This document shows, piece after piece, positions 7,140 to 55,693 of a DNA stretch of 64,000 nt. Below the pieces are notes generated by a model that was given only the letters and a program-made list of their open reading frames with translations, was not told the DNA's origin and did not search any database. Source of the stretch: a phage; the sequence record NC_101835.1. One strand, 5' to 3'. How positions within the stretch are numbered: position 1 is the first letter of the stretch; each line of letters begins with the position of its first letter. Position numbers and translations under genes: made by a program.

Positions 7140-7280
7140 ATGACTGATTTTACTGAAGCTTTAATGATGGCCTTGTCTGTTTTAGCGCTATCGGTGTGTT
7201 TTGGGGCGTTATTCACATCTCTGGTTAAAGTTTTACATACAGTATTATTACCCAAGGAGCGCAGTAATGACGAAGATTGA
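7140..7280 (+). CDS. small hydrophobic peptide (46 aa)
   Basis: ATG after AGAGGTGAGGA; below ORF-track size cut-off; hydrophobic core ALSVLALSVCFGALF. Confidence 0.3.
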   Translation: MTDFTEALMMALSVLALSVCFGALFTSLVKVLHTVLLPKERSNDED

Positions 7281-7518
7281 CTTAAATGCTGGAGACCATG
7301 TTGTTGTCAAATGCATCGGAGATTATCTTGGATTCACAATCGGCAATACTTACGAGGCGGTAGTGGCGAAGGTTTACCATGATAAAGTCCTCAGTCTTGT
7401 ATTTGACTGCGATGATGATGGGGATGACCGATACGTCTGTGAGGTGCTGGCACGAGACGATAGTGAAGACCAGAAATTCCTGGTTATTGAACTGAACGGT
7501 ATTTTTGTAGAACGTTAA
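7267..7518 (+). CDS. hypothetical acidic protein
   Basis: ATG after AAGGAGCG; track start 7201 less likely. Confidence 0.5.
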   Translation: MTKIDLNAGDHVVVKCIGDYLGFTIGNTYEAVVAKVYHDKVLSLVFDCDDDGDDRYVCEVLARDDSEDQKFLVIELNGIFVER

Positions 7519-12392: not shown

Positions 12393-12536
12393 GGTGTTTT
12401 TACCTCTTAGTTAATTTTCTTACAACTTCCCTTCAAAAAAGAATATAGCAAAACTGCCGATCCCTGTCAACCAGGGATAGCATAATTTTTATGTGATCAA
12501 GGGGCTTTATTGCCCCTGACCATGTAACTTGTTGTA

Positions 12537-13685: not shown

Positions 13686-13970
13686 TTAACGGTTCACGTA
13701 AGTTTTCCCGTTCACGGTTATGGGCAGATCCTCCAGGTCTGGATCTTCCTTAAGGTCGCGAGCAAGCTCACCGCACCGGATACCCTCGAATCCGTAGTAC
13801 TCTGTTGTGCCGTCCTTAAAAGTTTTAGCGGCAAGGCATAAGCGATAAGTAACCCCGATTTGATTGACGGCATGAATATCCGTTAGATTAACCTCTTTTG
13901 CCAGCTCTTTAGCCATTACAGGCGCATTAAGTCCAACAACCAGGGCAACCACTGCGATCATCTTTTTCAT
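13686..13970 (-). CDS. small secreted protein (signal peptide)
   Basis: MKKMIAVVALVVGLNAPVMA signal-like N-terminus; GAGGATGG upstream. Confidence 0.5.
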   Translation of the reverse strand: MKKMIAVVALVVGLNAPVMAKELAKEVNLTDIHAVNQIGVTYRLCLAAKTFKDGTTEYYGFEGIRCGELARDLKEDPDLEDLPITVNGKTYVNR

Positions 13971-16175: not shown

Positions 16176-16214
16176 TCCTTGTTAACTGCGTGTTATTTTA
16201 CCACGATTAAAATT

Positions 16215-16258
16215 TACTTTACTGATGGCCCTGGCGTCAAGGCCATCTAAAAATAAAT
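16215..16258. repeat. 44-bp conserved hairpin element, copy 1
   Basis: TTTACTTTACTGATGGCCCTGGCGTCAAGGCCATCTAAAAATAA; hairpin GATGGCC/GGCCATC; directly follows the stop of 16259-16459. Confidence 0.55.
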
Positions 16259-17375: not shown

Positions 17376-17755
17376 TTAAAAATTATCGCCGTAAATCTTT
17401 CCGCTTTCTGCCCACACCACCACGCGGGGCATACTATCCCACACGTCTTGTTTTAGATTGAGCGCGTGCAATTCTTCGGTGGTGCCCATACCAGGCACGG
17501 GCTGATTGTATACTGCAAAACGACCACCCGCATAGTCATAGGCCAGAGTTAAATCACACTGGATCATCTTTTTGATCATGGCATTAAGCATGGCGTTAGC
17601 CGCATACTGATCACGTTTTAAAGGCAACTCTTTGATTAGTTTGCGATAGTTTTCAATGTGATCGCACACTGTTTCACGTGGAAGATCTTTCATATCCTCG
17701 CGAAAGGTAACCAGGTTAAACATGACGGTGTCAATAGCTTTAGTAGTGTTTTTCA
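17376..17755 (-). CDS. hypothetical protein
   Basis: AAAGAGGAAAACATC before ATG (MKNTTKAID). Confidence 0.5.
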
Positions 17756-17810
17756 TGATGTTTTCCTCTTTGTTTTGTGTGGGGGGCAAACGTCTTGCCC
17801 CTTGAGTTTT

Positions 17811-17838
17811 AATATAGCAGGTTTTTAGATTATTGCAA
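17811..17838 (-). promoter_or_regulatory. sigma70-like promoter (TTGCAA-N16-TATATT)
   Basis: On minus strand, followed by a GC hairpin (17781-17801) and RBS of 17376-17755. Confidence 0.4.
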
Positions 17839-17846
17839 CACTTTAT

Positions 17847-18470
17847 TTATGAAAAACTCATCTCTCCATATTCATCCACATCAAACCGCCAATCATTGGC
17901 CTCGATAAGGCCGATCAGGTTTTCGGTAGTAAATTGTTCAAGATAAGCTTGCTCCAGGTCTACGTAAACCTTGCGGGATAGTTCCCGTACGTTCTCGGTG
18001 ATCAACTCTTCCAGCTCTTCAACCTTACTTTCTTGCTTGGCTGTCAGGTCTAGCCATGTAGTATCGATGTACCCGCTTACAGTGTTTTCGTGACTATAGC
18101 GGCTATATGGATCACGCTCAACACTTGCGGATAGCTCGCCATCGTGCATTGTGCCGAACAAGTGACGAATTGAGCGGAATTTAGTCAGAGACTTGACTTT
18201 ACGCAAGAATTTTTCTAAATCCACGTTTTCCGCACTGATTGACGCGCCGTCGCCCTGGCACCAAAAGCCGGACCAATGTACCTTGGTATCTTCAAGGCCA
18301 TACTCTGGAAAGATATGTTCTTTATAGTCTTCAATTACACTTTCTGCAAAAAAGTTATCCCCGCTGTGTTCTTCTCTTTCGCGGACCATTTCAATAGCTT
18401 TTTCTTTTTGTTCATCGGTCAGCACGTCGAAAGATAAATTGTAACCTGTGGTAATGTTAACGGTGGTCAT
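17847..18470 (-). CDS. hypothetical acidic protein
   Basis: ATAGGAGAAAATATC before ATG. Confidence 0.55.
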   Translation of the reverse strand: MTTVNITTGYNLSFDVLTDEQKEKAIEMVREREEHSGDNFFAESVIEDYKEHIFPEYGLEDTKVHWSGFWCQGDGASISAENVDLEKFLRKVKSLTKFRSIRHLFGTMHDGELSASVERDPYSRYSHENTVSGYIDTTWLDLTAKQESKVEELEELITENVRELSRKVYVDLEQAYLEQFTTENLIGLIEANDWRFDVDEYGEMSFS

Positions 18471-27158: not shown

Positions 27159-28385
27159 TCAGAAAGGGATCGAGTCATCAAAGGCGTACTGTGCTGGATT
27201 CTGATCCATCGGGTCATCTTCCTCATCATTTACAGGAGGAGCGTCTACAGTGTTTTGCTGTGGAGCTGCTTCCTGTTTGGCAGCCTGAGGTTCTTGATGG
27301 TCAGTTGACCCAGCACCGTTCTTGATCCAATCGTACAACGGCTCAGCCAGATTAGTCAAGACATCTTTTGCTTCTGCAGTAATTGCCACTGCAAAATCAT
27401 CAACTTTCGTTTTCTTGTCAATACGGCGACAAGCGTTCAACACCGCATTACCGACACTGGCACCTACTTCATCTTCAGTTCGGTTGGTGGCTTGAGCATA
27501 CTCTTTCTTAAGCTCAATAGTGACTACGTGTAGTGTTTTAGCCACTCCTAATGGGTCGTCTACCTTAAACCCGCGATCCAGGATGATCTGCAACGCATTG
27601 ATGCTATGCCCCGTTTCCACACCGATAGGGTCGTAAGAGGATTTACGCTTGCCACCGGAGCCTTGAGTGCCGTTCTCTGCCTTAGGAGGATAGGCCTTGA
27701 AACCACTGATAATGTTTCCAGTGTCTTTGTCAACAATGGCTGCAACACGACCACCTACCACCAGGTCTTTAAGCTGCTCATCAGTGACAACCATAGCACC
27801 TTCGCCAATCTTGTGGTCATTAACAGTAACCACGTTGCCAACAATCTGAGTCACATCACCATAGATGCGTAAAACGTCCTGATTGGCATTCTGCTGAGGT
27901 TTCTGCTTCTGGCCTTGTGATTGTGCACCTTGTTGCTGTTTTTGCTGCTGAGTCGCTGCTGGAGCCTCTCCTGCACCCAGCTTGACCATCTTAGCCAGTG
28001 AGCCTTTGTAATAGGTCTTACCGTTATGCTCGTTTGCCTTCAAAGGGATATTTACGATCCATCCTGGCGTTACGGTTTCCCACTTGTCATCAATTTTAAC
28101 AGAGACAGAGTCTTGATGACCCGGTTTAAGCAACTTATCGCCCATACTGATCCAAACTTCTTCACCACCTTGAAGCAGGTTATCAGAGGAATCCAGTTCA
28201 GAAATCAGTAAAGAGATGGTGTGGCTGGATTCAATTTTCTTACCTTGCCACACAGTGGTTTTAATACCTGTTGTAGGATCAGCACCTTTGATAGGCTTGA
28301 TGCTGACACGTTTAATCATGCCGTGAGCCAGTAAAACAGTTTCACGCGGATTCATCGGGTTAGCGAATTGTTGAATAACGCTCAT
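27159..28385 (-). CDS. putative ssDNA-binding protein with SSB-type acidic C-terminal tail
   Basis: C-terminus ..DDPMDQNPAQYAFDDSIPF resembles E. coli SSB tail DDDIPF; Q-rich linker; sits in the replication block. Confidence 0.5.
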   Translation of the reverse strand: MSVIQQFANPMNPRETVLLAHGMIKRVSIKPIKGADPTTGIKTTVWQGKKIESSHTISLLISELDSSDNLLQGGEEVWISMGDKLLKPGHQDSVSVKIDDKWETVTPGWIVNIPLKANEHNGKTYYKGSLAKMVKLGAGEAPAATQQQKQQQGAQSQGQKQKPQQNANQDVLRIYGDVTQIVGNVVTVNDHKIGEGAMVVTDEQLKDLVVGGRVAAIVDKDTGNIISGFKAYPPKAENGTQGSGGKRKSSYDPIGVETGHSINALQIILDRGFKVDDPLGVAKTLHVVTIELKKEYAQATNRTEDEVGASVGNAVLNACRRIDKKTKVDDFAVAITAEAKDVLTNLAEPLYDWIKNGAGSTDHQEPQAAKQEAAPQQNTVDAPPVNDEEDDPMDQNPAQYAFDDSIPF

Positions 28386-28750: not shown

Positions 28751-28833
28751 TATGGAATCTCCGATTTTATTTGAACAACATAGAAGGAGACACTATTTTA
28801 GCATCCCCTTCTGTAAATTACAATAGGTATTTG

Positions 28834-29079
28834 TTAGCCAATCACTTCGAAAGTTCCCCAATTCCCGTCCAGCAGGCAGGTGATCGGATCTCCATCGTCG
28901 TCAAAGATTTCAAAGTTTTCAGCATCCAGGATGTGGCCCTCGAACACAATACTCTCGTCGCCACCACCAGAAATAACAGCGTATTCCTTACCTTGAGTCA
29001 AGTTTTGACACCCTTTGCCACCAAAACCTACTTCCACACAACGTACTTTCTGTCCTGCGCGAGCAACTACTTCAGCCAT
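28834..29079 (-). CDS. hypothetical protein
   Basis: AGGAGA RBS. Confidence 0.5.
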   Translation of the reverse strand: MAEVVARAGQKVRCVEVGFGGKGCQNLTQGKEYAVISGGGDESIVFEGHILDAENFEIFDDDGDPITCLLDGNWGTFEVIG

Positions 29080-29398: not shown

Positions 29399-29778
29399 TT
29401 TGCCGCTTCTCCTGCATTCATCAGGTCTGCCATAGCGTCACCCACGAAGAGAACAACCACATCGTTGACAGCGTCAGCATCATCTTTGTTGACGTTGCTG
29501 AATTTAGGACACACAGCAATGATCATATAGACACCGTTACCAACCTGGACTGTCCGTGTGGTGCACATCATGGCGGTATTTGTGCCTTCTTTGAAGGCGA
29601 AGCCTTGAAGACGCTCCTCTAAAGTGTTACCGGTAGACTTCAGAAGCGCCAGCTCGTCCAAGGCATAGATGATATCTCCGGAAGTTAGTGTTGCCTTGCC
29701 ATCAGACACCATAATCACTCCATCAGTACCGTCAAGCTTAGAGGCTTCAAAGATATCAATATCCCAAATATTTTTCAT
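29389..29778 (-). CDS. hypothetical acidic protein
   Basis: GAGGAAGCG RBS. Confidence 0.5.
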   Translation of the reverse strand: MKNIWDIDIFEASKLDGTDGVIMVSDGKATLTSGDIIYALDELALLKSTGNTLEERLQGFAFKEGTNTAMMCTTRTVQVGNGVYMIIAVCPKFSNVNKDDADAVNDVVVLFVGDAMADLMNAGEAANED

Positions 29779-30050
29779 TACGCTTCCTCGTCGTCTAAGT
29801 AATCATCAAGAGAGGCGAAGATTTCACCGAAGTATTCTAAGATTTCTAGCTCACGTGTGGTGCAGCAAACATAATCGCCTTGGTCGTCCTTAATAGTGGC
29901 CTCTTTACCCAGAATATCTACTTCAAGTTCATCGTTCAACAGGACGGCCCCTGTGTAAACTTTGTCAGCTGTGCAGTCCCGAAAAGCAGAGTCCTTCTCC
30001 AGATAGTCTGGCTTAACCTTGGCTTTAATTCGTTGGTATTGTTTGGTCAT
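29778..30050 (-). CDS. hypothetical protein, tandem paralog pair (copy 2)
   Basis: AAAGGGGACCACAGCA before ATG (MTKQYQ); KPDYLEKDSAFRDCT / IKDDQGDYVCCTTRE matches 30114-30368. Confidence 0.5.
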   Translation of the reverse strand: MTKQYQRIKAKVKPDYLEKDSAFRDCTADKVYTGAVLLNDELEVDILGKEATIKDDQGDYVCCTTRELEILEYFGEIFASLDDYLDDEEA

Positions 30051-30071
30051 TGCTGTGGTCCCCTTTCGTTT

Positions 30072-30100
30072 TGATAGGGCCATTATATTAGGCCCTATCA
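30072..30100. repeat. perfect 10-bp-arm palindrome
   Basis: TGATAGGGCC-ATTATATTA-GGCCCTATCA between two paralogous genes; no flanking T-run. Confidence 0.5.
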
Positions 30101-30113
30101 CTGTTGTCAAGTA

Positions 30114-30368
30114 TTAATGTTCAGGTTTTACAAAAACGACTTCATTAACAGTGCACCAGACAGAGTCTCCTTCATCATCTTTAAAGGTAAGGCACTGTGC
30201 TGAGTTTTCCAGCTCATCGATCTCTTCTTGTGATAAAGGGGCCCCTTCTTCCAGAAGGGCTTTTACCAGAGGGTTCTCACAAAACTCTGCTTCATAAATT
30301 GCACCGACTGTGCAATCTTTAAAAGCTCGGTCATTTGCAACGCATTCTGGCTTCAAAGTAATTTTCAT
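30114..30368 (-). CDS. hypothetical protein, tandem paralog pair (copy 1)
   Basis: GAGGAGA RBS; KPECVANDRAFKDCT / FKDDEGDSVWCTVNE. Confidence 0.5.
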   Translation of the reverse strand: MKITLKPECVANDRAFKDCTVGAIYEAEFCENPLVKALLEEGAPLSQEEIDELENSAQCLTFKDDEGDSVWCTVNEVVFVKPEH

Positions 30369-30444
30369 CTTGGCAGTCTCCTCAGTTATTTAAAAATCAA
30401 CGCTCTGTTTGTGTGAAGCATCTTATATCTAATCTTACTTCTTG

Positions 30445-30816
30445 TCAATGGCTATTTTCAATCAGCCACACAGGGTCGAGGTAAATTTGTTGGCGTGTTG
30501 CCCAATGACAAACTTCATTGTACATCTGAATCTCTTTGTCTGTCAATTCACGAATAGGCTCATCTATACCCTCATTTTTGTGGTAATCCCAGTCGGCATC
30601 GATTTCCCACAGCCATGACTTGTTGTCACCACGCTTACGCACACAGAAGTCACCAGGACGGCCTGCCAATGCATTTAAGAACTCGTTCTCCGCTCGCTCT
30701 TGGAGAATACTAAGGAGCAAAACGTTAGAACATGACCGTAGAATATGCTTCAGCTCACAATCATCAATCTCAACTTCAATACGTTGTTTGACTGTGTGGG
30801 TACCTTTTACTAACAT
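30445..30816 (-). CDS. hypothetical protein
   Basis: GAGGAGGTAGG before ATG (MLVKGTH). Confidence 0.5.
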   Translation of the reverse strand: MLVKGTHTVKQRIEVEIDDCELKHILRSCSNVLLLSILQERAENEFLNALAGRPGDFCVRKRGDNKSWLWEIDADWDYHKNEGIDEPIRELTDKEIQMYNEVCHWATRQQIYLDPVWLIENSH

Positions 30817-30826
30817 CCTACCTCCT

Positions 30827-31021
30827 CTAAACGAACTCTGCAAGGGTTGTGTTGTTCACTGCACCGCAGTAAATGGAGTATCCCAGCCCATTAGAGTGCA
30901 GAAACCACGGCGTGCCGAAATTATCTTTCACGTAGACATCGCCGTTGCTTGTAAAGGGCCAATATTCTTCACCAAGGGTGAAATACCTACTCATACCCTC
31001 AGCCAGATACTTTACTTTCAT
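30827..31021 (-). CDS. hypothetical protein, tandem paralog trio
   Basis: GAAGAGGG RBS; shares ..KDNFGTPWFL.. motif with the next two genes. Confidence 0.5.
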   Translation of the reverse strand: MKVKYLAEGMSRYFTLGEEYWPFTSNGDVYVKDNFGTPWFLHSNGLGYSIYCGAVNNTTLAEFV

Positions 31022-31245
31022 AGGCCCTCTTCAACAGCTACAAACTTGGCAAGCAGGGTGGTTCCGTAGATATGATACTCACCGTTTGCCAGATGGGAGA
31101 TAAACCAGGAAATCCCTTCCTCGTCTTTAATCATCTTGTTTGCACGATTTTTATCGTAATAAACCTCGTAGGTCTTTCCTTCTTTAAAGAATGACAGGTC
31201 TGTCATCTTTTCTTCTACAAAAGTAGCTTTAACCAAAGTTGTCAT
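31018..31245 (-). CDS. hypothetical protein, tandem paralog trio
   Basis: AAGGAGA RBS; IKDEEGISWFISHLANGEYHIYGTTLLAKFV. Confidence 0.5.
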   Translation of the reverse strand: MTTLVKATFVEEKMTDLSFFKEGKTYEVYYDKNRANKMIKDEEGISWFISHLANGEYHIYGTTLLAKFVAVEEGL

Positions 31246-31526
31246 TGATCGGTCTCCTTCTTGTTAAGTCTGAATACTGCAATAATAGCATTCCCAAGGT
31301 GCAGTGTCAAATCATTTCCAAGATACCACAACATTCCACGGTCATCTTTAATGAAAGGGTAACAATCTGGTGCCTTCCAGACATTGTACACTTTCCCAAC
31401 CTGAAAGAAATCAGGCCCTGTTGGGATTTTGGTGCCAGGCCACACTTGGGATGCCTGAACACACTCCACCTGCATAATAACAGGGATAGTCATAGATGTA
31501 AATGTTTTTGTTGGTTCTACTACCAT
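31242..31526 (-). CDS. hypothetical protein, tandem paralog trio
   Basis: AGAGGAGAC before ATG (MVVEPTK); IKDDRGMLWYLGNDLTLHLGNAIIAVF. Confidence 0.45.
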   Translation of the reverse strand: MVVEPTKTFTSMTIPVIMQVECVQASQVWPGTKIPTGPDFFQVGKVYNVWKAPDCYPFIKDDRGMLWYLGNDLTLHLGNAIIAVFRLNKKETDQ

Positions 31527-31575: not shown

Positions 31576-31929
31576 TTAGTGACAATCACCCCAATTACGA
31601 CCACACAAGTATTCACCTGTGATCTGGAACGGGACTCCCATCATTTTAGAAGCTTGCCAGAAGCAATGTACCACCATTTCGCCCACAGGACTCCAGATAA
31701 GTTCAAGCTTTCCGTCATCGTTCAAGATAGGATCGTACACCGTGTTTCCGTTTCTGTCAACCACTTCGTTTCCGTTTTCATCCTTGCGTGCCTTTTTGTA
31801 CTTATGACCGTCGAACACATGAAGTTTGGCCTCCTGCTCTGCCTTAAATGCTTCCAATTCTTCAATTGTGTCGAAGGTGTACACAGTCTTATACTTAGGT
31901 GTGTCAGGGACCTGAAGTTGGTACTCATC
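31576..31929 (-). CDS. DNA polymerase (family A), C-terminal segment / putative exon 2
   Basis: Begins DEYQLQV (completes HDE motif C with the upstream exon) and ends ..CGRNWGDCH, like the C-terminal His of T7 gp5 / Pol I; no SD before it. Confidence 0.6.
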   Translation of the reverse strand, partial: DEYQLQVPDTPKYKTVYTFDTIEELEAFKAEQEAKLHVFDGHKYKKARKDENGNEVVDRNGNTVYDPILNDDGKLELIWSPVGEMVVHCFWQASKMMGVPFQITGEYLCGRNWGDCH

Positions 31930-32205
31930 CAATAGTTCAGGTAGGTCGTTAAGCTACCCCGCACCATTACGTGCATAGCCATACGTTTTCACGTAGGATC
32001 GGACCATCTCATATTCCTATGATAAGCAACCACAGGAATCCTCCCATTTCGACCGCACTTGCTGGTCTACTTCCTTTCGGAATGGCCTCTGAGCGTTCGC
32101 TCTTTTGAGCGCTTCGTTGCGGATTACCTTGCCATAAGGTTTAGGCTTCCCGCAGTTAAAGAGGTTATTCGACATAGATTACTCTATGAAGCCACAATGT
32201 TATTT
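31930..32205 (-). other. putative group I self-splicing intron in DNA polymerase gene
   Basis: 276 nt between ..YYH and DE..; 5-prime exon ends in U, intron ends in G; GUGG near intron start can pair with exon CCAU; P-like AACUGCGGGAAGCC and Q-like AAUCCGCAACG; GAAA-capped hairpins. Confidence 0.5.
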
Positions 32206-34629
32206 ATGGTAATAAATAATACGACGAACACCTTCATCGTACCACCCACGCTTCACCATTTGGTGGTGCATAAGTATCCCAACCAAGTCACACAGCGATG
32301 CACCACCATTCTGTTGATATGCATTAAGTAAAGAGTGTTTAGATCGGGTCCAGATGGCATGACCATCAAAAGAGTAGATAAACTTCTTACCCGTTGCTTC
32401 CCAGAATTTCTCCAGATCCTCTTTACGGCCCTTAAGACCAGGGTTGGCATCCCAAAGCGCATCGATTACCCTTTGTCCCAACTCTGGAGAGATGTCCAGC
32501 ATATCTGCAACTTTATCTTTTTGTGCCCCGTACATAACCCCATACGTGATAGGTTTACCGTCGTTACGGGACACCTCTCTACCTGCTACTTTTGTATATG
32601 CCTCAGCATTGTTTTGGTGTGCGTCCCCGTTACTTACAACATCGTAATACAGGCCGTTGTCGAACTCAAAGGCACCCCAAGCCCCGATAAGCTGCTCTAA
32701 GTTGGACCCGTCAATACCGATCTCAAAGTATCCCGGAGGAACACCCCACAGACTACGCATCTCTTTACCCATAACCACTTTAGGAGATGGTTTAGGCATG
32801 TTTGCACAAATACTGTGTTTCTGTCTGGAAGTGTTTGTTAATCCAGAGCTTTTAGCAGGAAGCTTATGGTCAATCTTCAAACGTGGGTGATTAAGAAGAC
32901 CAGTGTCAACCTTATCCTCCTTGATTGGATCAAGTACCGATCTGCGGTTTCGCAATGATAACCATAAGACGATATCTTTAGCCATCTCTCCGTTCAATTT
33001 TTCAAGATTCGGACACAGGTGTCCAAACGTATCTTTCAGTTGCGGAGAAGTAATAAGTGCCCTAGCTTTTCTACGTATTTTCCCGAATACTTCCTTTTTA
33101 ATCCTTTCGGAGTTAGGAAAGCTTCGGAACTTGTGCACTGTTGTCTGAAACTTAGCATCAGTTTTGTTCCAGAAGTTGATAATTAGGTCACAATACTCTG
33201 ACTCTAAAAGCTCGTCCATGTATGCATATACTCGTGCATCAACATCTGCATCAGGTAGAGCTTTCTTCTTGCTGTCTTTAGTTACATCCTTAGTTCTCCA
33301 CATTGTCGGAAGCCAACCAGCACTGATCAGGTATCGCTTAATGTCGTCCTGATTGCTGATTTTCATAGGTATCTTGCAGTCAGGCATTCGCTTCTGCTGC
33401 AGATCGCTTATTGCCTGATCCATCAGCTCTTTAGGCAAAGGTTGTGGTGTGGAGGTGCCCTTAATATAACCTCTCAAGAAATCAGCCATCTTGTCGGGGT
33501 CTTTGCAGCCCATCTCTTCACACCATTTTATCCCCATCTTACTGACATCTCCTGTGGAGGTAAATGCTCTCTTAGGCGGGGCTTTGAACTCTAGAGCGCT
33601 CATGTCTACAGGATAGCCAAGCTTATCTTTTAACCATTTCCAACCATTATTAGAGATTGTCCCGTCTTGGTTAAACGGCTTTTCAGGGAACTTGGGCCGC
33701 TGAGACATTGACAGCTCTTTTAAAGGCAGTTGTGGTTCAACACGATCAGCGATTTCTTTCATCCACGCATCGCAACGGTCACGTAAAGCAATAGCTCCAT
33801 CTATGTCGAAGTATACACCCTGACGGGCCTGCAGCTCCATCAGGAAGTGCTGCAGCATGCCTCGACGTAATGCGTTCTTCCAGGTGATCTTCTTGAACCC
33901 TTTCGGCTTCTCTTTGGCAGGATCGTACATAAAGTTCTGCATGTCAGATTTGCCGTAGAATACACCTTTTGATTCCGCTACCAGTTCTTTCCAGAGCAGC
34001 TCCTGGATGATAACGTCCTCAAATACACGATCCACATACTTCCACAACGGAAGATCGCGCCAGTCATCAATTTGAACTTTCTGGTTACCAAGGGCATAGC
34101 CCCATGCCATAAGGCCGTGGGGACCAACAGGCTGCATTTTCTTAGTAACCGGGTTGAATACAGCGTCCGGACAACCTTTTGGTAAAGGGCGATCAGGCCA
34201 CAAGATTCGGCTCATCGCCAACGTATCAAACAGGTTAACCTGGTGGTCGTTGATAGTCCCCATGCATTTAGGATCACGGAACATATCAAAATGAATACCG
34301 GATAATCTTTCCATCAGCATAAAGTCATAACTGTAGCAGTTATGGCAGTTCAAAGCTGTTGGTGACCAGTCGGAATTGCCTGTAAGCCAACCTTCCAACT
34401 CCGAAAAATCTGCTATGCGAACTTCAAAACCTTTATAAAGAGTTTTCTTTGCCAGAATGAAGTTCTTAGCCTTTTCTATATCCTCCTCGGAGTAGTGTGT
34501 GCGGTCATTTAGAGGAAGGAACAGCATAAAACGGTTCTTATTCAGCTCTTTAAACAGGCCGCAGTGATAATAAAGATCTGGATCTTCCAAAAGCCCTGAG
34601 GCCTCCAGATCGAAGCACCAATTACTCAT
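32200..34629 (-). CDS. DNA polymerase (family A, T7 gp5-like), N-terminal 808 aa / putative exon 1
   Basis: N-terminal FDLEASGL..HCG exonuclease motif like T7 gp5; motif A region IGIDGSNLEQL; motif B KPITYGVMYGAQ; ORF stops at ..RIIYYHK, i.e. at motif C. Confidence 0.85.
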   Translation of the reverse strand: MSNWCFDLEASGLLEDPDLYYHCGLFKELNKNRFMLFLPLNDRTHYSEEDIEKAKNFILAKKTLYKGFEVRIADFSELEGWLTGNSDWSPTALNCHNCYSYDFMLMERLSGIHFDMFRDPKCMGTINDHQVNLFDTLAMSRILWPDRPLPKGCPDAVFNPVTKKMQPVGPHGLMAWGYALGNQKVQIDDWRDLPLWKYVDRVFEDVIIQELLWKELVAESKGVFYGKSDMQNFMYDPAKEKPKGFKKITWKNALRRGMLQHFLMELQARQGVYFDIDGAIALRDRCDAWMKEIADRVEPQLPLKELSMSQRPKFPEKPFNQDGTISNNGWKWLKDKLGYPVDMSALEFKAPPKRAFTSTGDVSKMGIKWCEEMGCKDPDKMADFLRGYIKGTSTPQPLPKELMDQAISDLQQKRMPDCKIPMKISNQDDIKRYLISAGWLPTMWRTKDVTKDSKKKALPDADVDARVYAYMDELLESEYCDLIINFWNKTDAKFQTTVHKFRSFPNSERIKKEVFGKIRRKARALITSPQLKDTFGHLCPNLEKLNGEMAKDIVLWLSLRNRRSVLDPIKEDKVDTGLLNHPRLKIDHKLPAKSSGLTNTSRQKHSICANMPKPSPKVVMGKEMRSLWGVPPGYFEIGIDGSNLEQLIGAWGAFEFDNGLYYDVVSNGDAHQNNAEAYTKVAGREVSRNDGKPITYGVMYGAQKDKVADMLDISPELGQRVIDALWDANPGLKGRKEDLEKFWEATGKKFIYSFDGHAIWTRSKHSLLNAYQQNGGASLCDLVGILMHHQMVKRGWYDEGVRRIIYYHK

Positions 34630-55285: not shown

Positions 55286-55693
55286 ATGGAGAATCTTGCA
55301 AGTGTGAATGTCGAAATTGTTAAACTAAAGTTCTTGGGCTTTCGAGACCCTTATTCTTTAACAGCTATACTAATGGATACCCACTTCACACCGGGTAAAG
55401 AGTACACAGCCTTCCGTTATATTTGTGGAGATCACGAATCAGCTTATAGTGTGAATACAAACCTAGGCGAGGGATATTTCATCAGAGATATCACAGATCA
55501 CTTATGGGGAATGTGGGAGTTGGTGGAAGAAGAGAATAAATCCCTTCCTAAAGAGATTTGGGTGCACACCTTCCACACAGGTAAGTTTGGAGGTACGGAA
55601 CATAAGTCTATTCACTATGATGAAGAAAGTGCCATCAAACAACAAGCTGTGCTTGGTGGATCTGTAGAAAAATTTGTTAAATGCGAGGACTGA
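55286..55693 (+). CDS. hypothetical protein
   Basis: AGAGGAGA RBS. Confidence 0.5.
   Translation: MENLASVNVEIVKLKFLGFRDPYSLTAILMDTHFTPGKEYTAFRYICGDHESAYSVNTNLGEGYFIRDITDHLWGMWELVEEENKSLPKEIWVHTFHTGKFGGTEHKSIHYDEESAIKQQAVLGGSVEKFVKCED

Follow-up and report, generated by a model that had tools for sequence, protein, structure and literature searches.

Two families of small paralogous proteins and a promoter-associated palindrome downstream of the polymerase gene in a Vequintavirus genome

The gene block and its setting

The window analyzed here, a stretch of 64,000 nt (NC_101835.1), belongs to the genome of a Vequintavirus (rV5-like) coliphage. A first-pass annotation of this DNA placed two clusters of tandem paralogs just downstream of the polymerase; the position is correct, with the amendment that the clusters follow exon 2 of the polymerase gene, which a group I intron interrupts. 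The five ORFs assigned to these clusters (orfA, orfB, orfD, orfE and orfF) are all located on the minus strand, at the coordinates originally given, and each is preceded by a good Shine-Dalgarno sequence. The ribosome-binding sites single out the 90-aa start for orfA (30050) and the 94-aa start for orfF (31526); ORF 219 of phage rV5 is the ortholog of orfA and has a longer N-terminus in the rV5 annotation. The features of the locus are the following.

28782-28823, minus strand: second promoter-like site, TTGTAA-17-TAAAAT, at which a 12-14-pair hairpin holds the -10 hexamer in its loop
28834-29079, minus strand: G81, 81 aa, acidic, PHROG 4927, outside the interval delineated in the first-pass annotation
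29778-30050, minus strand: orfA, 90 aa, pI 4.2, paralog of orfB, PHROG 11936
30072-30100, minus strand: inverted repeat TGATAGGGCC-N9-GGCCCTATCA, with 10-bp arms and a 9-nt loop that holds the -10 hexamer
30082-30110, minus strand: putative sigma-70 promoter directed toward orfA, TTGACA-17-TATAAT (12/12 consensus), starting 3 nt past the orfB stop
30114-30368, minus strand: orfB, 84 aa, pI 4.2, paralog of orfA, PHROG 12544
30420-30448, minus strand: promoter P220, with the boxes TTGACA-17-TAAGAT, lying upstream of orfB and listed as a promoter in the rV5 record
30445-30816, minus strand: orfC, 123 aa, PHROG 6273, an unrelated gene between the two paralog sets
30827-31021, minus strand: orfD, 64 aa, member of the D/E/F family of predicted barrels, PHROG 12802
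31018-31245, minus strand: orfE, 75 aa, hub of the trio, with the stop codon overlapping the orfD start by 4 nt
31242-31526, minus strand: orfF, 94 aa, with an N-terminal extension of ~35 aa and the stop overlapping the orfE start by 4 nt, PHROG 12922

Searches of Pfam, NCBIfam and PDB sequences yield no above-threshold match for any of the proteins from orfA to orfF, and every PHROG matched by the proteins of the block is labelled 'unknown function'. The paralogs and the orfA promoter both go unmentioned in the rV5 genome paper, and a literature search found no Vequintavirus transcriptomics.

Two paralogous families

The tandem paralogy of orfA and orfB withstands alignment significance testing. 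BLASTP aligns the two proteins with E=1e-10 and 32% identity across 77 aa (4e-8 when scored among the 122 ORFs of the window), the comparison of their ortholog profiles with hhalign gives 96.7% and E=3.5e-10, the Smith-Waterman shuffle z is 15.1, with 0 of 1000 shuffles equally good, and each protein matches the PHROG of the other at ~1e-5. The shared motif that had initially drawn attention to the pair is genuine and takes the form D..AF.DC...Y and DD.GD.V.CT, both parts being invariant across the two families; common to the two proteins are a pair of invariant cysteines and the DD.GD hairpin. Structure models were made for orfB and orfE. The model of orfB is an SH3-like barrel with a helical insertion (pLDDT 79.8, pTM 0.59), and its fold matches are generic: the likeness to the known SH3-like barrels (SH3, retroviral integrase C-terminal domain, KOW, Mib/Herc2) is at the level of fold only, neither orfA nor orfB shows a sequence family match to any of these, and the two-helix insertion that sets orfB against them is absent from orfA. 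With a net charge of about -12 each, orfA and orfB are very acidic; on this structure prediction, they would be SH3-like barrels that comprise an old single-domain family.

The second tandem family, orfD, orfE and orfF, is statistically significant by way of orfE. The orfE-orfF pair is the strongest (shuffle z=9.5; hhalign 79%, E=1.6e-5), the orfD-orfE pair reaches z=7.0 (0 of 1000 shuffles) but just 10% in hhalign (E=0.003), and the orfD-orfF pair is marginal (z=2.9; hhalign 2.4%), so that the trio holds together with orfE as the hub; all 32 control pairs among nine neighboring proteins gave z<3.5. The members of this family are ~25% identical, and the residues invariant across the trio are, in orfE numbering, F20, G23, Y26, D41, G44, W47, A66 and F68. 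The possibility that orfA and orfB themselves belong with the trio was considered and rejected (hhalign E 0.045-0.39, HMM E 1.7 and 1.8).

The trio is part of a wider phage domain superfamily, defined by a domain of ~60 aa with the motif (F/W)(F/W)T.GKEY.V ... I.DD.G..W. An HMM of the superfamily that was built without G81 recovers G81 with E=4.7e-4 among 718 segments of the window, and on this sequence evidence G81 is probably a fourth member encoded at the locus. Searching 1.84 billion representatives with the D/E/F profile (HMMER) retrieves multi-repeat proteins at 1e-8 to 1e-4, and reciprocal PHROG cross-matches occur within the superfamily (PHROGs 12802, 12623, 12922, 4927, 3523 and others). 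The GKEY/DD.G domain is also found as 2-5 tandem repeats per polypeptide, with one DUF3310 fusion. The proteins of PHROG 3523 and the DUF3310 (T7 gp1.7-like) fusions have the same motif and domain length as the proteins described here, and their repeats cross-match the PHROGs of orfD, orfE and G81; there, however, the copies are fused in one polypeptide, whereas in the phage block they are separate, translationally coupled ORFs. A superfamily of this breadth, including multi-repeat and fusion proteins, is probably unnamed so far and appears to be the sequence counterpart of the predicted orfE fold; it would deserve a family definition.

Age and origin of the genes

The first-pass annotation interpreted the clusters as local gene amplification with rapidly evolving accessory functions. 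The notion of rapid evolution is not borne out: the order and copy number of the six genes from orfA to orfF are identical in 16 of 16 Vequintavirus relatives fetched, and the dN/dS values of the block genes, 0.015-0.16, are like that of polymerase exon 2 (0.064). Fixed synteny and low dN/dS imply old, constrained genes rather than recent or fast amplification. The 16 genomes were taken from GenBank phage records because an IMG/VR scan with orfB and a scan of metagenome contigs with an orfA 5' pattern each turned up just 2 loci. The accessory character of the genes, in contrast, is upheld, in that orthologs of A/B and D/E/F are found in Vequintavirus only and the corresponding block in three other genera of Vequintavirinae holds different ORFs. 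All tblastn matches with A/B and D/E/F fall in 115 Vequintavirus-type records, the only additions from a search of 5.8 billion proteins for orthologs are contigs of 130-140 kb, and the regions downstream of the polymerase in KB57, SSE121 and PcCB7V, from three other genera of Vequintavirinae, contain different small ORFs and no member of A/B or D/E/F. The block is an ordinary set of conserved accessory genes of a well-sequenced phage genus.

Local amplification is unproven for orfD, orfE and orfF because these proteins score as well or better against outside multi-repeat proteins as against each other. Thus, orfD scores 87 with a repeat of P0078 and 53 with orfE, and orfE scores 72 with a repeat of P0084 and 59 with orfF (P0078 and P0084 are multi-repeat proteins from other sources). 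There is a considerable, if lesser, chance that the three genes, along with G81, are not local duplicates but either arrived separately from a mobile superfamily or resulted from fission of a multi-repeat gene into coupled ORFs. In addition to the higher scores of orfD and orfE with the outside repeats, the existence of proteins that carry the domain 2-5 times in tandem, the 4-nt stop/start overlaps that join the three genes and the ~25% identity of the members are all compatible with such an origin. Nevertheless, orfE remains the best-scoring partner of orfF, orfD, orfE and orfF are adjacent in every relative, orfA and orfB have no detectable relatives outside the genus, and scores on 65-aa domains are noisy. 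For orfA and orfB, duplication within the genome is the simplest origin because relatives outside the genus are undetectable.

A putative promoter whose -10 box lies in a hairpin loop

The perfect palindrome with 10-bp arms that was reported between orfB and orfA is exact, the arms TGATAGGGCC and GGCCCTATCA being 100% complementary, and unique in the window even with 3 mismatches allowed, with 0 expected from shuffles. The promoter that it overlaps is the best intergenic consensus match in the window, is also predicted independently in the record of phage Gotham, and is followed by a Shine-Dalgarno sequence GGGG 9 nt ahead of the orfA ATG. Conservation of the palindrome is evident for both the boxes and the pairing across 12 sequence variants. 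All of them carry an unchanged -35 box and a -10 box of the form TAYAAT at a constant 17-bp spacing, even phage CM1, which is diverged downstream. As sense-strand RNA, the hairpin has a folding energy of -17.5 kcal/mol, every variant still folds it, at -9.9 to -17.5 kcal/mol, and 90.8% of the stem cells are paired across the variants.

The tool count of stem pairs changed on both sides is three, which includes a mis-registered CM1 row; inspection by eye confirmed compensatory changes from G-C to A-U in the rV5/JES2013 group and from A-U to G-C in CM1. In the hairpin alignment (A6), a 1-nt indel mis-registers the 3' arm of CM1, so that the pairs of this phage, which was instead checked by folding, are undercounted in the covariation analysis. 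The stem covariation is 0.191 compared with 0.153 in shuffled alignments (18/500), a modest signal owing to the closeness of the relatives. Where only one side of the stem changed, the outcome was a sense-strand G-U pair in 5 events and an A-C type mismatch in 3; the strand bias is not significant, so that this test does not separate an RNA hairpin from a DNA hairpin.

The same layout is found again 1.3 kb downstream, at 28782-28823, where the hairpin has 12 pairs with the hexamer unpaired and 14 in the minimum-energy fold; this site is conserved in relatives, and the Gotham record labels it a promoter, the HdK5 record a terminator. A stem of at least 10 pairs tight around the -10 hexamer is present in 2 of the ~62 non-coding promoter-like sites, against a background of <0.001 per position. 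The arms of the two palindromes that embrace a -10 box, TGATAGGGCC and AGAAGGGGATGC, are unrelated. Both boxes of P220 are invariant in relatives as well. The block is probably transcribed by the host sigma-70 RNA polymerase.

The conservation of the palindrome and its location inside a consensus promoter indicate a regulatory role for the element itself. By sequence, it appears to form the hairpin of a strong promoter of the host type rather than a site for the neighboring proteins. Binding by the products of the adjacent genes, suggested in the first-pass annotation, is unlikely given that orfA and orfB have a pI of 4.2, a charge of about -12 and no match to a DNA-binding family; Pfam and NCBIfam searches detect no DNA-binding domain in either. 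A repressor operator with its cognate regulator alongside was rejected on the same grounds: the dyad is present, the adjacent DNA-binding protein is missing. A canonical intrinsic (Rho-independent) terminator was dismissed too, the stem being present but the sense-strand tail, AAAACGAAAGG, lacking a U-tract and the site being absent from the terminator scan. Rfam contains no family over the hairpin, the sole match in the region being the polymerase group I intron.

An operator in the broader sense, at which a dimeric phage or host regulator would bind one 10-bp half-site on each side of the -10 box and repress the orfA promoter, is an unlikely alternative that nevertheless accounts for several observations: the perfect dyad symmetry lies exactly over the core promoter, the rV5 group retains this symmetry through matching changes in its two arms (GGACC/GGTCC), and a second promoter has an equal layout. 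The unrelated arms of the two sites, however, imply that one regulator cannot serve both, and many single-arm changes break the symmetry of the DNA yet retain G-U pairing in RNA; moreover, the adjacent products are strongly acidic, and the centers of the half-sites are 19 bp apart, a spacing that is unusual for helix-turn-helix dimers. Similarly improbable, in our assessment, is an element that functions at the RNA level only, in processing or stability of a polycistronic mRNA, with the promoter match incidental or minor. The stable hairpin, conserved with G-U intermediates and compensatory pairs and flanked by a stop codon and the following ribosome-binding site, fits such a role, but a pure RNA element is an insufficient explanation for the invariant -35 box, outside the hairpin, and the fixed 17-bp spacing in 12 of 12 variants including CM1, or for a 12/12 consensus match, the best among those between genes in the window. 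An RNase III site in particular was rejected because the stem is just 10 bp, too short for a classical site of this kind.

The promoter-associated hairpin has its closest known analogue, as far as the comparison of layouts goes, in the promoter/stem-loop cassettes (PeSLs, for promoter-early stem-loop) of T4-type phages, such as RB49 and phi1 (Arbiol et al. 2010, PMC2839356; Comeau et al. 2014, PMC4122927). PeSLs combine near-consensus sigma-70 promoters with stem-loops, mostly between the boxes or over the -10 box, followed by a Shine-Dalgarno sequence and an ATG, and are located between ORFan genes (PMC2839356). The succession is the same here: the stop of the upstream small gene, a near-perfect TTGACA-N17-TATAAT, a stem-loop on the -10 box, a Shine-Dalgarno sequence and the ATG of a small ORFan. 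The near-consensus promoter (12/12, 17-bp spacer) lies in a short spacer between small ORFan genes, a 10-bp stem that loops out the -10 hexamer is one of the arrangements seen most often in PeSLs, and several promoter/stem-loop composites are present in the same gene block and the early region. There are also differences. PeSLs come in many similar, recombining copies associated with indels between close relatives, whereas here the gene content is identical in 16 relatives, the other composites share just the promoter boxes, and the stems are not repeated, the palindrome being unique at up to 3 mismatches; the lineage is Vequintavirus rather than T4-type, and there is neither a G-run/C-run stem nor a U-tract. 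Two conserved hairpins that enclose a -10 box, within 1.3 kb of each other, suggest that the T4-type phages are not alone in having PeSL-like cassettes.

Predicted fold and possible roles

The AlphaFold model of orfE is a six-stranded barrel (pLDDT 89.7, pTM 0.78; at least 87 for all five models), and this fold matches Gp54 of Escherichia phage Bas11 (PDB 9AXB), with which the model shares a single domain of ~65-75 aa and a prominent beta1-beta2 loop. Sequence homology of D/E/F to Gp54 or PHROG 7421 is non-significant (hhalign E 0.17 and 0.25), the shuffle z against Gp54 is just 3.45, and Gp54 is absent from a profile search of PDB sequences with E up to 10. Gp54 belongs to PHROG 7421, other than the PHROGs of D/E/F, and comes from a phage of the family Drexlerviridae as opposed to Vequintavirinae; furthermore, the locus described here holds the domain in three or four tandem copies, of which the one in orfF is preceded by an N-terminal extension. 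Gp54 is an alternative direct trigger of CapRel-SJ46, a defence protein built as a toxin-antitoxin fusion, which is not triggered by close Gp54 homologues (Zhang et al., Nature 2024, PMC11578894). It is improbable that the weaker likenesses, those of orfD with orfE and orfF and of orfE with Gp54, reflect chance or convergence of small beta-rich proteins, with only A/B and E/F being true paralogs, despite the hhalign probabilities of 10% for D-E and 2.4% for D-F and the non-significant comparison of orfE with Gp54.

Taken together, we lean toward a conserved accessory block in which two old barrel families act on host proteins and the palindrome is a promoter/stem-loop cassette. By analogy with Gp54, the D/E/F proteins, probably joined by G81, and the A/B proteins would be protein-binding modules that interact with host proteins for takeover or anti-defence, and could also be targets detected by host immune sensors. 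The palindrome would be the stem-loop half of the composite cassette, the promoter of which would start a transcript for orfA and later genes; in read-through transcripts that start at P220, the 10-bp hairpin would form between orfB and orfA, and this hairpin might attenuate or insulate read-through or form a 3' stability barrier for the orfB mRNA. A more far-reaching joint scenario, which we regard as speculative and rather unlikely, is that D/E/F and G81 are diversified host-protein binders with the Gp54(Bas11) fold, from a large unnamed superfamily that sensors such as CapRel learned to detect, that tandem diverged copies let the phage mutate or lose a sensed copy with the function kept, and that promoters with the -10 box in a hairpin are PeSL-like transcription insulators outside the T4-type phages.

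Gp54 is the sole member of this rare fold for which a structure has been solved and an interaction, the direct activation of a bacterial immunity protein, is known. The predicted structural tie gives a testable handle on three or four 'hypothetical proteins'. The BFVD includes many small uncharacterized proteins of enterobacterial phages with the orfE/Gp54 fold, often several per genome.

A conserved, probably accessory block downstream of the polymerase

The genes downstream of the polymerase are best interpreted as a conserved accessory block of small putative protein-binding barrels, one family of which has the predicted fold of Gp54 of phage Bas11, punctuated by predicted composite promoter/stem-loop cassettes. 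A block of this sort is commonplace in phages. The minus strand carries all genes from ~10.5 kb to 49 kb, and over 100 Vequintavirus genomes in GenBank (rV5-like E. coli myoviruses) match this region at 94-98% identity. The closest relatives (up to 98.4% identity) are the MG0656xx GenBank records deposited as 'Campylobacter phage'; these host labels look doubtful, the genomes being those of rV5-like coliphage. The five ORFs described in the first-pass annotation are present, each with a Shine-Dalgarno sequence, and lie downstream of polymerase exon 2:

32200-34629, minus: polymerase exon 1, by itself an 809-aa ORF
31980-32215, minus: polymerase group I intron (Rfam RF00028; bit score 64.7, gathering threshold 50)
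~31576-31932, minus: polymerase exon 2
31242-31526, minus: orfF
31018-31245, minus: orfE
30827-31021, minus: orfD
30114-30368, minus: orfB
29778-30050, minus: orfA

The polymerase gene is also annotated as intron-interrupted in phage LL12, and is uninterrupted in JES2013, HdK5, Gotham, ECP2309 and typing phage 4. In CM1 and 241Ecol014PP, an HNH endonuclease gene directly upstream of the C-terminal polymerase exon probably sits inside the intron.

Sixteen Vequintavirus loci from GenBank, IMG/VR and metagenomes all share the order F-E-D-C-B-A (orfC lies between the two clusters) and the same order of the genes that follow; dN/dS ranges from 0.015 for orfF through 0.051 (orfA), 0.080 (orfD), 0.099 (orfB) and 0.108 (orfC) to 0.164 (orfE), compared with 0.064 for polymerase exon 2. 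The low dN/dS and the fixed order indicate that orfA-orfF are real, constrained genes. The rapidly evolving local amplification initially suggested is only partly supported and does not hold within the genus. On a longer timescale, the accessory character of the paralogs survives: judging from sequence searches, these genes look accessory. In tblastn searches of 50,697 phage records, orfB and orfE match only 115, all Vequintavirus-type; profile searches of 5.8 billion proteins return only orthologs, on 130-140 kb contigs, with no orfA/orfB relatives found beyond Vequintavirus. Different small ORFs, none matching the A/B or D/E/F profiles, fill the 4.5-kb stretch that follows the polymerase in Mydovirus KB57, Seunavirus SSE121 and Certrevirus PcCB7V.

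Two paralogous families

The paralogy of orfA and orfB is clear (BLASTP E=1e-10; E=4e-8 all-against-all among 122 window ORFs; hhalign 96.7%; shuffle z=15, against <3.5 for each of 32 control pairs drawn from nine neighbouring proteins). The motifs noted in the first pass recur as invariant shared residues. Both proteins are strongly acidic (pI 4.2, net charge ~-12) and have two invariant cysteines in common. According to the structural model (pLDDT 79.8, pTM 0.59), orfB is a predicted SH3-like barrel containing a two-helix insertion absent from orfA.

The gene orfA (29854-29864, minus) and the next gene, which encodes 129 aa (29555-29565, minus), share the 11-nt direct repeat TGCACCACACG, coding for C-T-T-R; in the assembly-derived variant P0013 these two genes are fused in frame exactly at this repeat, implying a deletion between the copies. 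In several assemblies (orthologs P0016-P0018 and P0021-P0024), orfB is frameshifted at a GGGGCCCC run, which may be a sequencing error.

The orfD-orfF genes overlap each other by 4 nt. The relatedness of the trio stands for E-F (z=9.5, hhalign 79%) and D-E (z=7.0, 0/1000 shuffles, hhalign only 10%), with D-F weak when taken alone (z=2.9), so by sequence the trio holds together through orfE as a hub. The AlphaFold2 model of orfE, built from an alignment of all three paralog families, is confident (pLDDT 89.7, pTM 0.78; five of five models at least 87). Some orfF orthologs (P0055, P0056) contain an 11-aa internal duplication, KAPDCHPFIKE.

The palindrome as part of a predicted promoter

The palindrome reported between orfB and orfA (10-bp arms, 30072-30100) is confirmed as exact and has no second copy in the window. 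Read along the coding (minus) strand, the spacer is TAA-TAC-TTGACA-acagTGATAGGGCCtaaTATAATGGCCCTATCAaaacgaaaGGGGaccacagcaATG, a predicted orfA promoter with perfect sigma-70 consensus and a 17-bp spacer, the -10 hexamer of which falls within the hairpin loop; the annotators of phage Gotham arrived at this promoter by an independent prediction. A comparison of 12 distinct variants shows no change in the -35 box or in the spacing and a TAYAAT -10 box throughout, even in CM1 with its diverged downstream sequence. The stem remains paired in 90.8% of cells. The rV5/JES2013 group has A-U in place of G-C, SYGMH1 providing a G-U intermediate, and CM1 has G-C in place of A-U, again with G-U intermediates; the covariation score is 0.191 compared with 0.153 in shuffled alignments (18/500), and the hairpin folds in every variant (-9.9 to -17.5 kcal/mol). 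Because boxes, pairing and folding are all kept, the palindrome is conserved; the lack of conservation that would have counted against the first-pass annotation is not seen.

The layout recurs at a second site:

28823..28795 (element 28782-28823), minus: weaker predicted promoter (TTGTAA-17-TAAAAT), -10 hexamer inside a 12-14-pair hairpin

This hairpin is nearly invariant in relatives, and different groups annotated the site as a promoter in one GenBank record and a terminator in another. Tight stems surround the -10 box at 2 of ~62 non-coding promoter-like sites compared with <0.1% of background positions. A weaker stem, GAAGTA/TGCTTC, surrounds the -10 box of promoter P220 upstream of orfB (30420-30448, minus), and phage JEP1 has both arms replaced by the complementary GGGGTA/TACCCC, a compensatory change. 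That the palindrome is an operator is less likely: the two palindromes embracing a -10 box are unlike in sequence, single-arm changes break the DNA symmetry and the neighbouring proteins are acidic.

By analogy, the closest known counterpart of the palindrome/promoter is the PeSL (promoter-early stem-loop) cassette known from T4-type phages: a sigma-70 promoter close to consensus, with a stem-loop that mostly overlies the -10 or separates the two boxes, located between small ORFan genes and with demonstrated promoter and attenuator activity (PMC2839356). Unlike PeSLs, the stems here are non-repeated sequences, relatives show no gene-content differences at the palindrome site and no U-tract follows its stem. 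The sequences point to several PeSL-like composites in this genome, a useful testable lead to such cassettes outside T4-type phages. Stem-loops over the -35 box occur at early-region promoters 12442-12470 and 16212-16240 (both minus; ATCCCTG-GTTGA-CAGGGAT and GATGGCCTTG-ACGC-CAGGGCCATC).

A wider domain superfamily

A Foldseek search of BFVD finds the orfE fold in many small uncharacterised enterobacterial phage proteins, often several per genome. With the D/E/F profile as query, an exhaustive HMMER search across 1.84 billion representatives recovers proteins with 2-5 tandem copies of the same ~60-aa domain, one of them fused to DUF3310, and these repeats cross-match the PHROGs of orfD, orfE and an 81-aa acidic protein (28834-29079, minus). 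The latter is a probable fourth superfamily member: an HMM built without it picks it out of 718 window segments with E=4.7e-4. Weaker matches are window ORFs 55286-55693 (plus; E 0.004) and 7267-7518 (plus; E 0.017); orfA and orfB were rejected as members (E 1.7-1.8). Some foreign repeats outscore the D-E pairing, so that local duplication is not established as the origin of orfD-orfF; the three may have arisen by ancient duplication, by separate acquisition or by fission of a repeat gene.

Gp54, 66 aa long and of unknown function, is non-essential under laboratory conditions and directly binds and activates the defence protein CapRel-SJ46 (Zhang et al., Nature 2024, PMC11578894). The likeness of D/E/F to Gp54 is in predicted structure only, sequence similarity being non-significant in profile and pairwise tests. 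In a local alignment, itself non-significant, the F..G and G..W motifs lie opposite G24 and W43, the escape-mutation sites of Gp54 (PMC11578894). This putative link to a known immune-sensor trigger is a useful lead that can be tested. Several other Bas11 ORFs (27217-27654, 17579-17944, 13760-13930) match the HMM of the D/E/F-type (GKEY/DD.G) superfamily at E 9e-4 to 8e-3; gp54 itself gives no match.

By sequence comparison, tandem paralogs among small genes are common in this genome. The plus-strand arm contains further paralogous small-ORF sets, 2368-2592/2582-2836/4727-5059 and 2876-3247/5059-5454 (BLASTP E 8e-14, 2e-3 and 3e-7).
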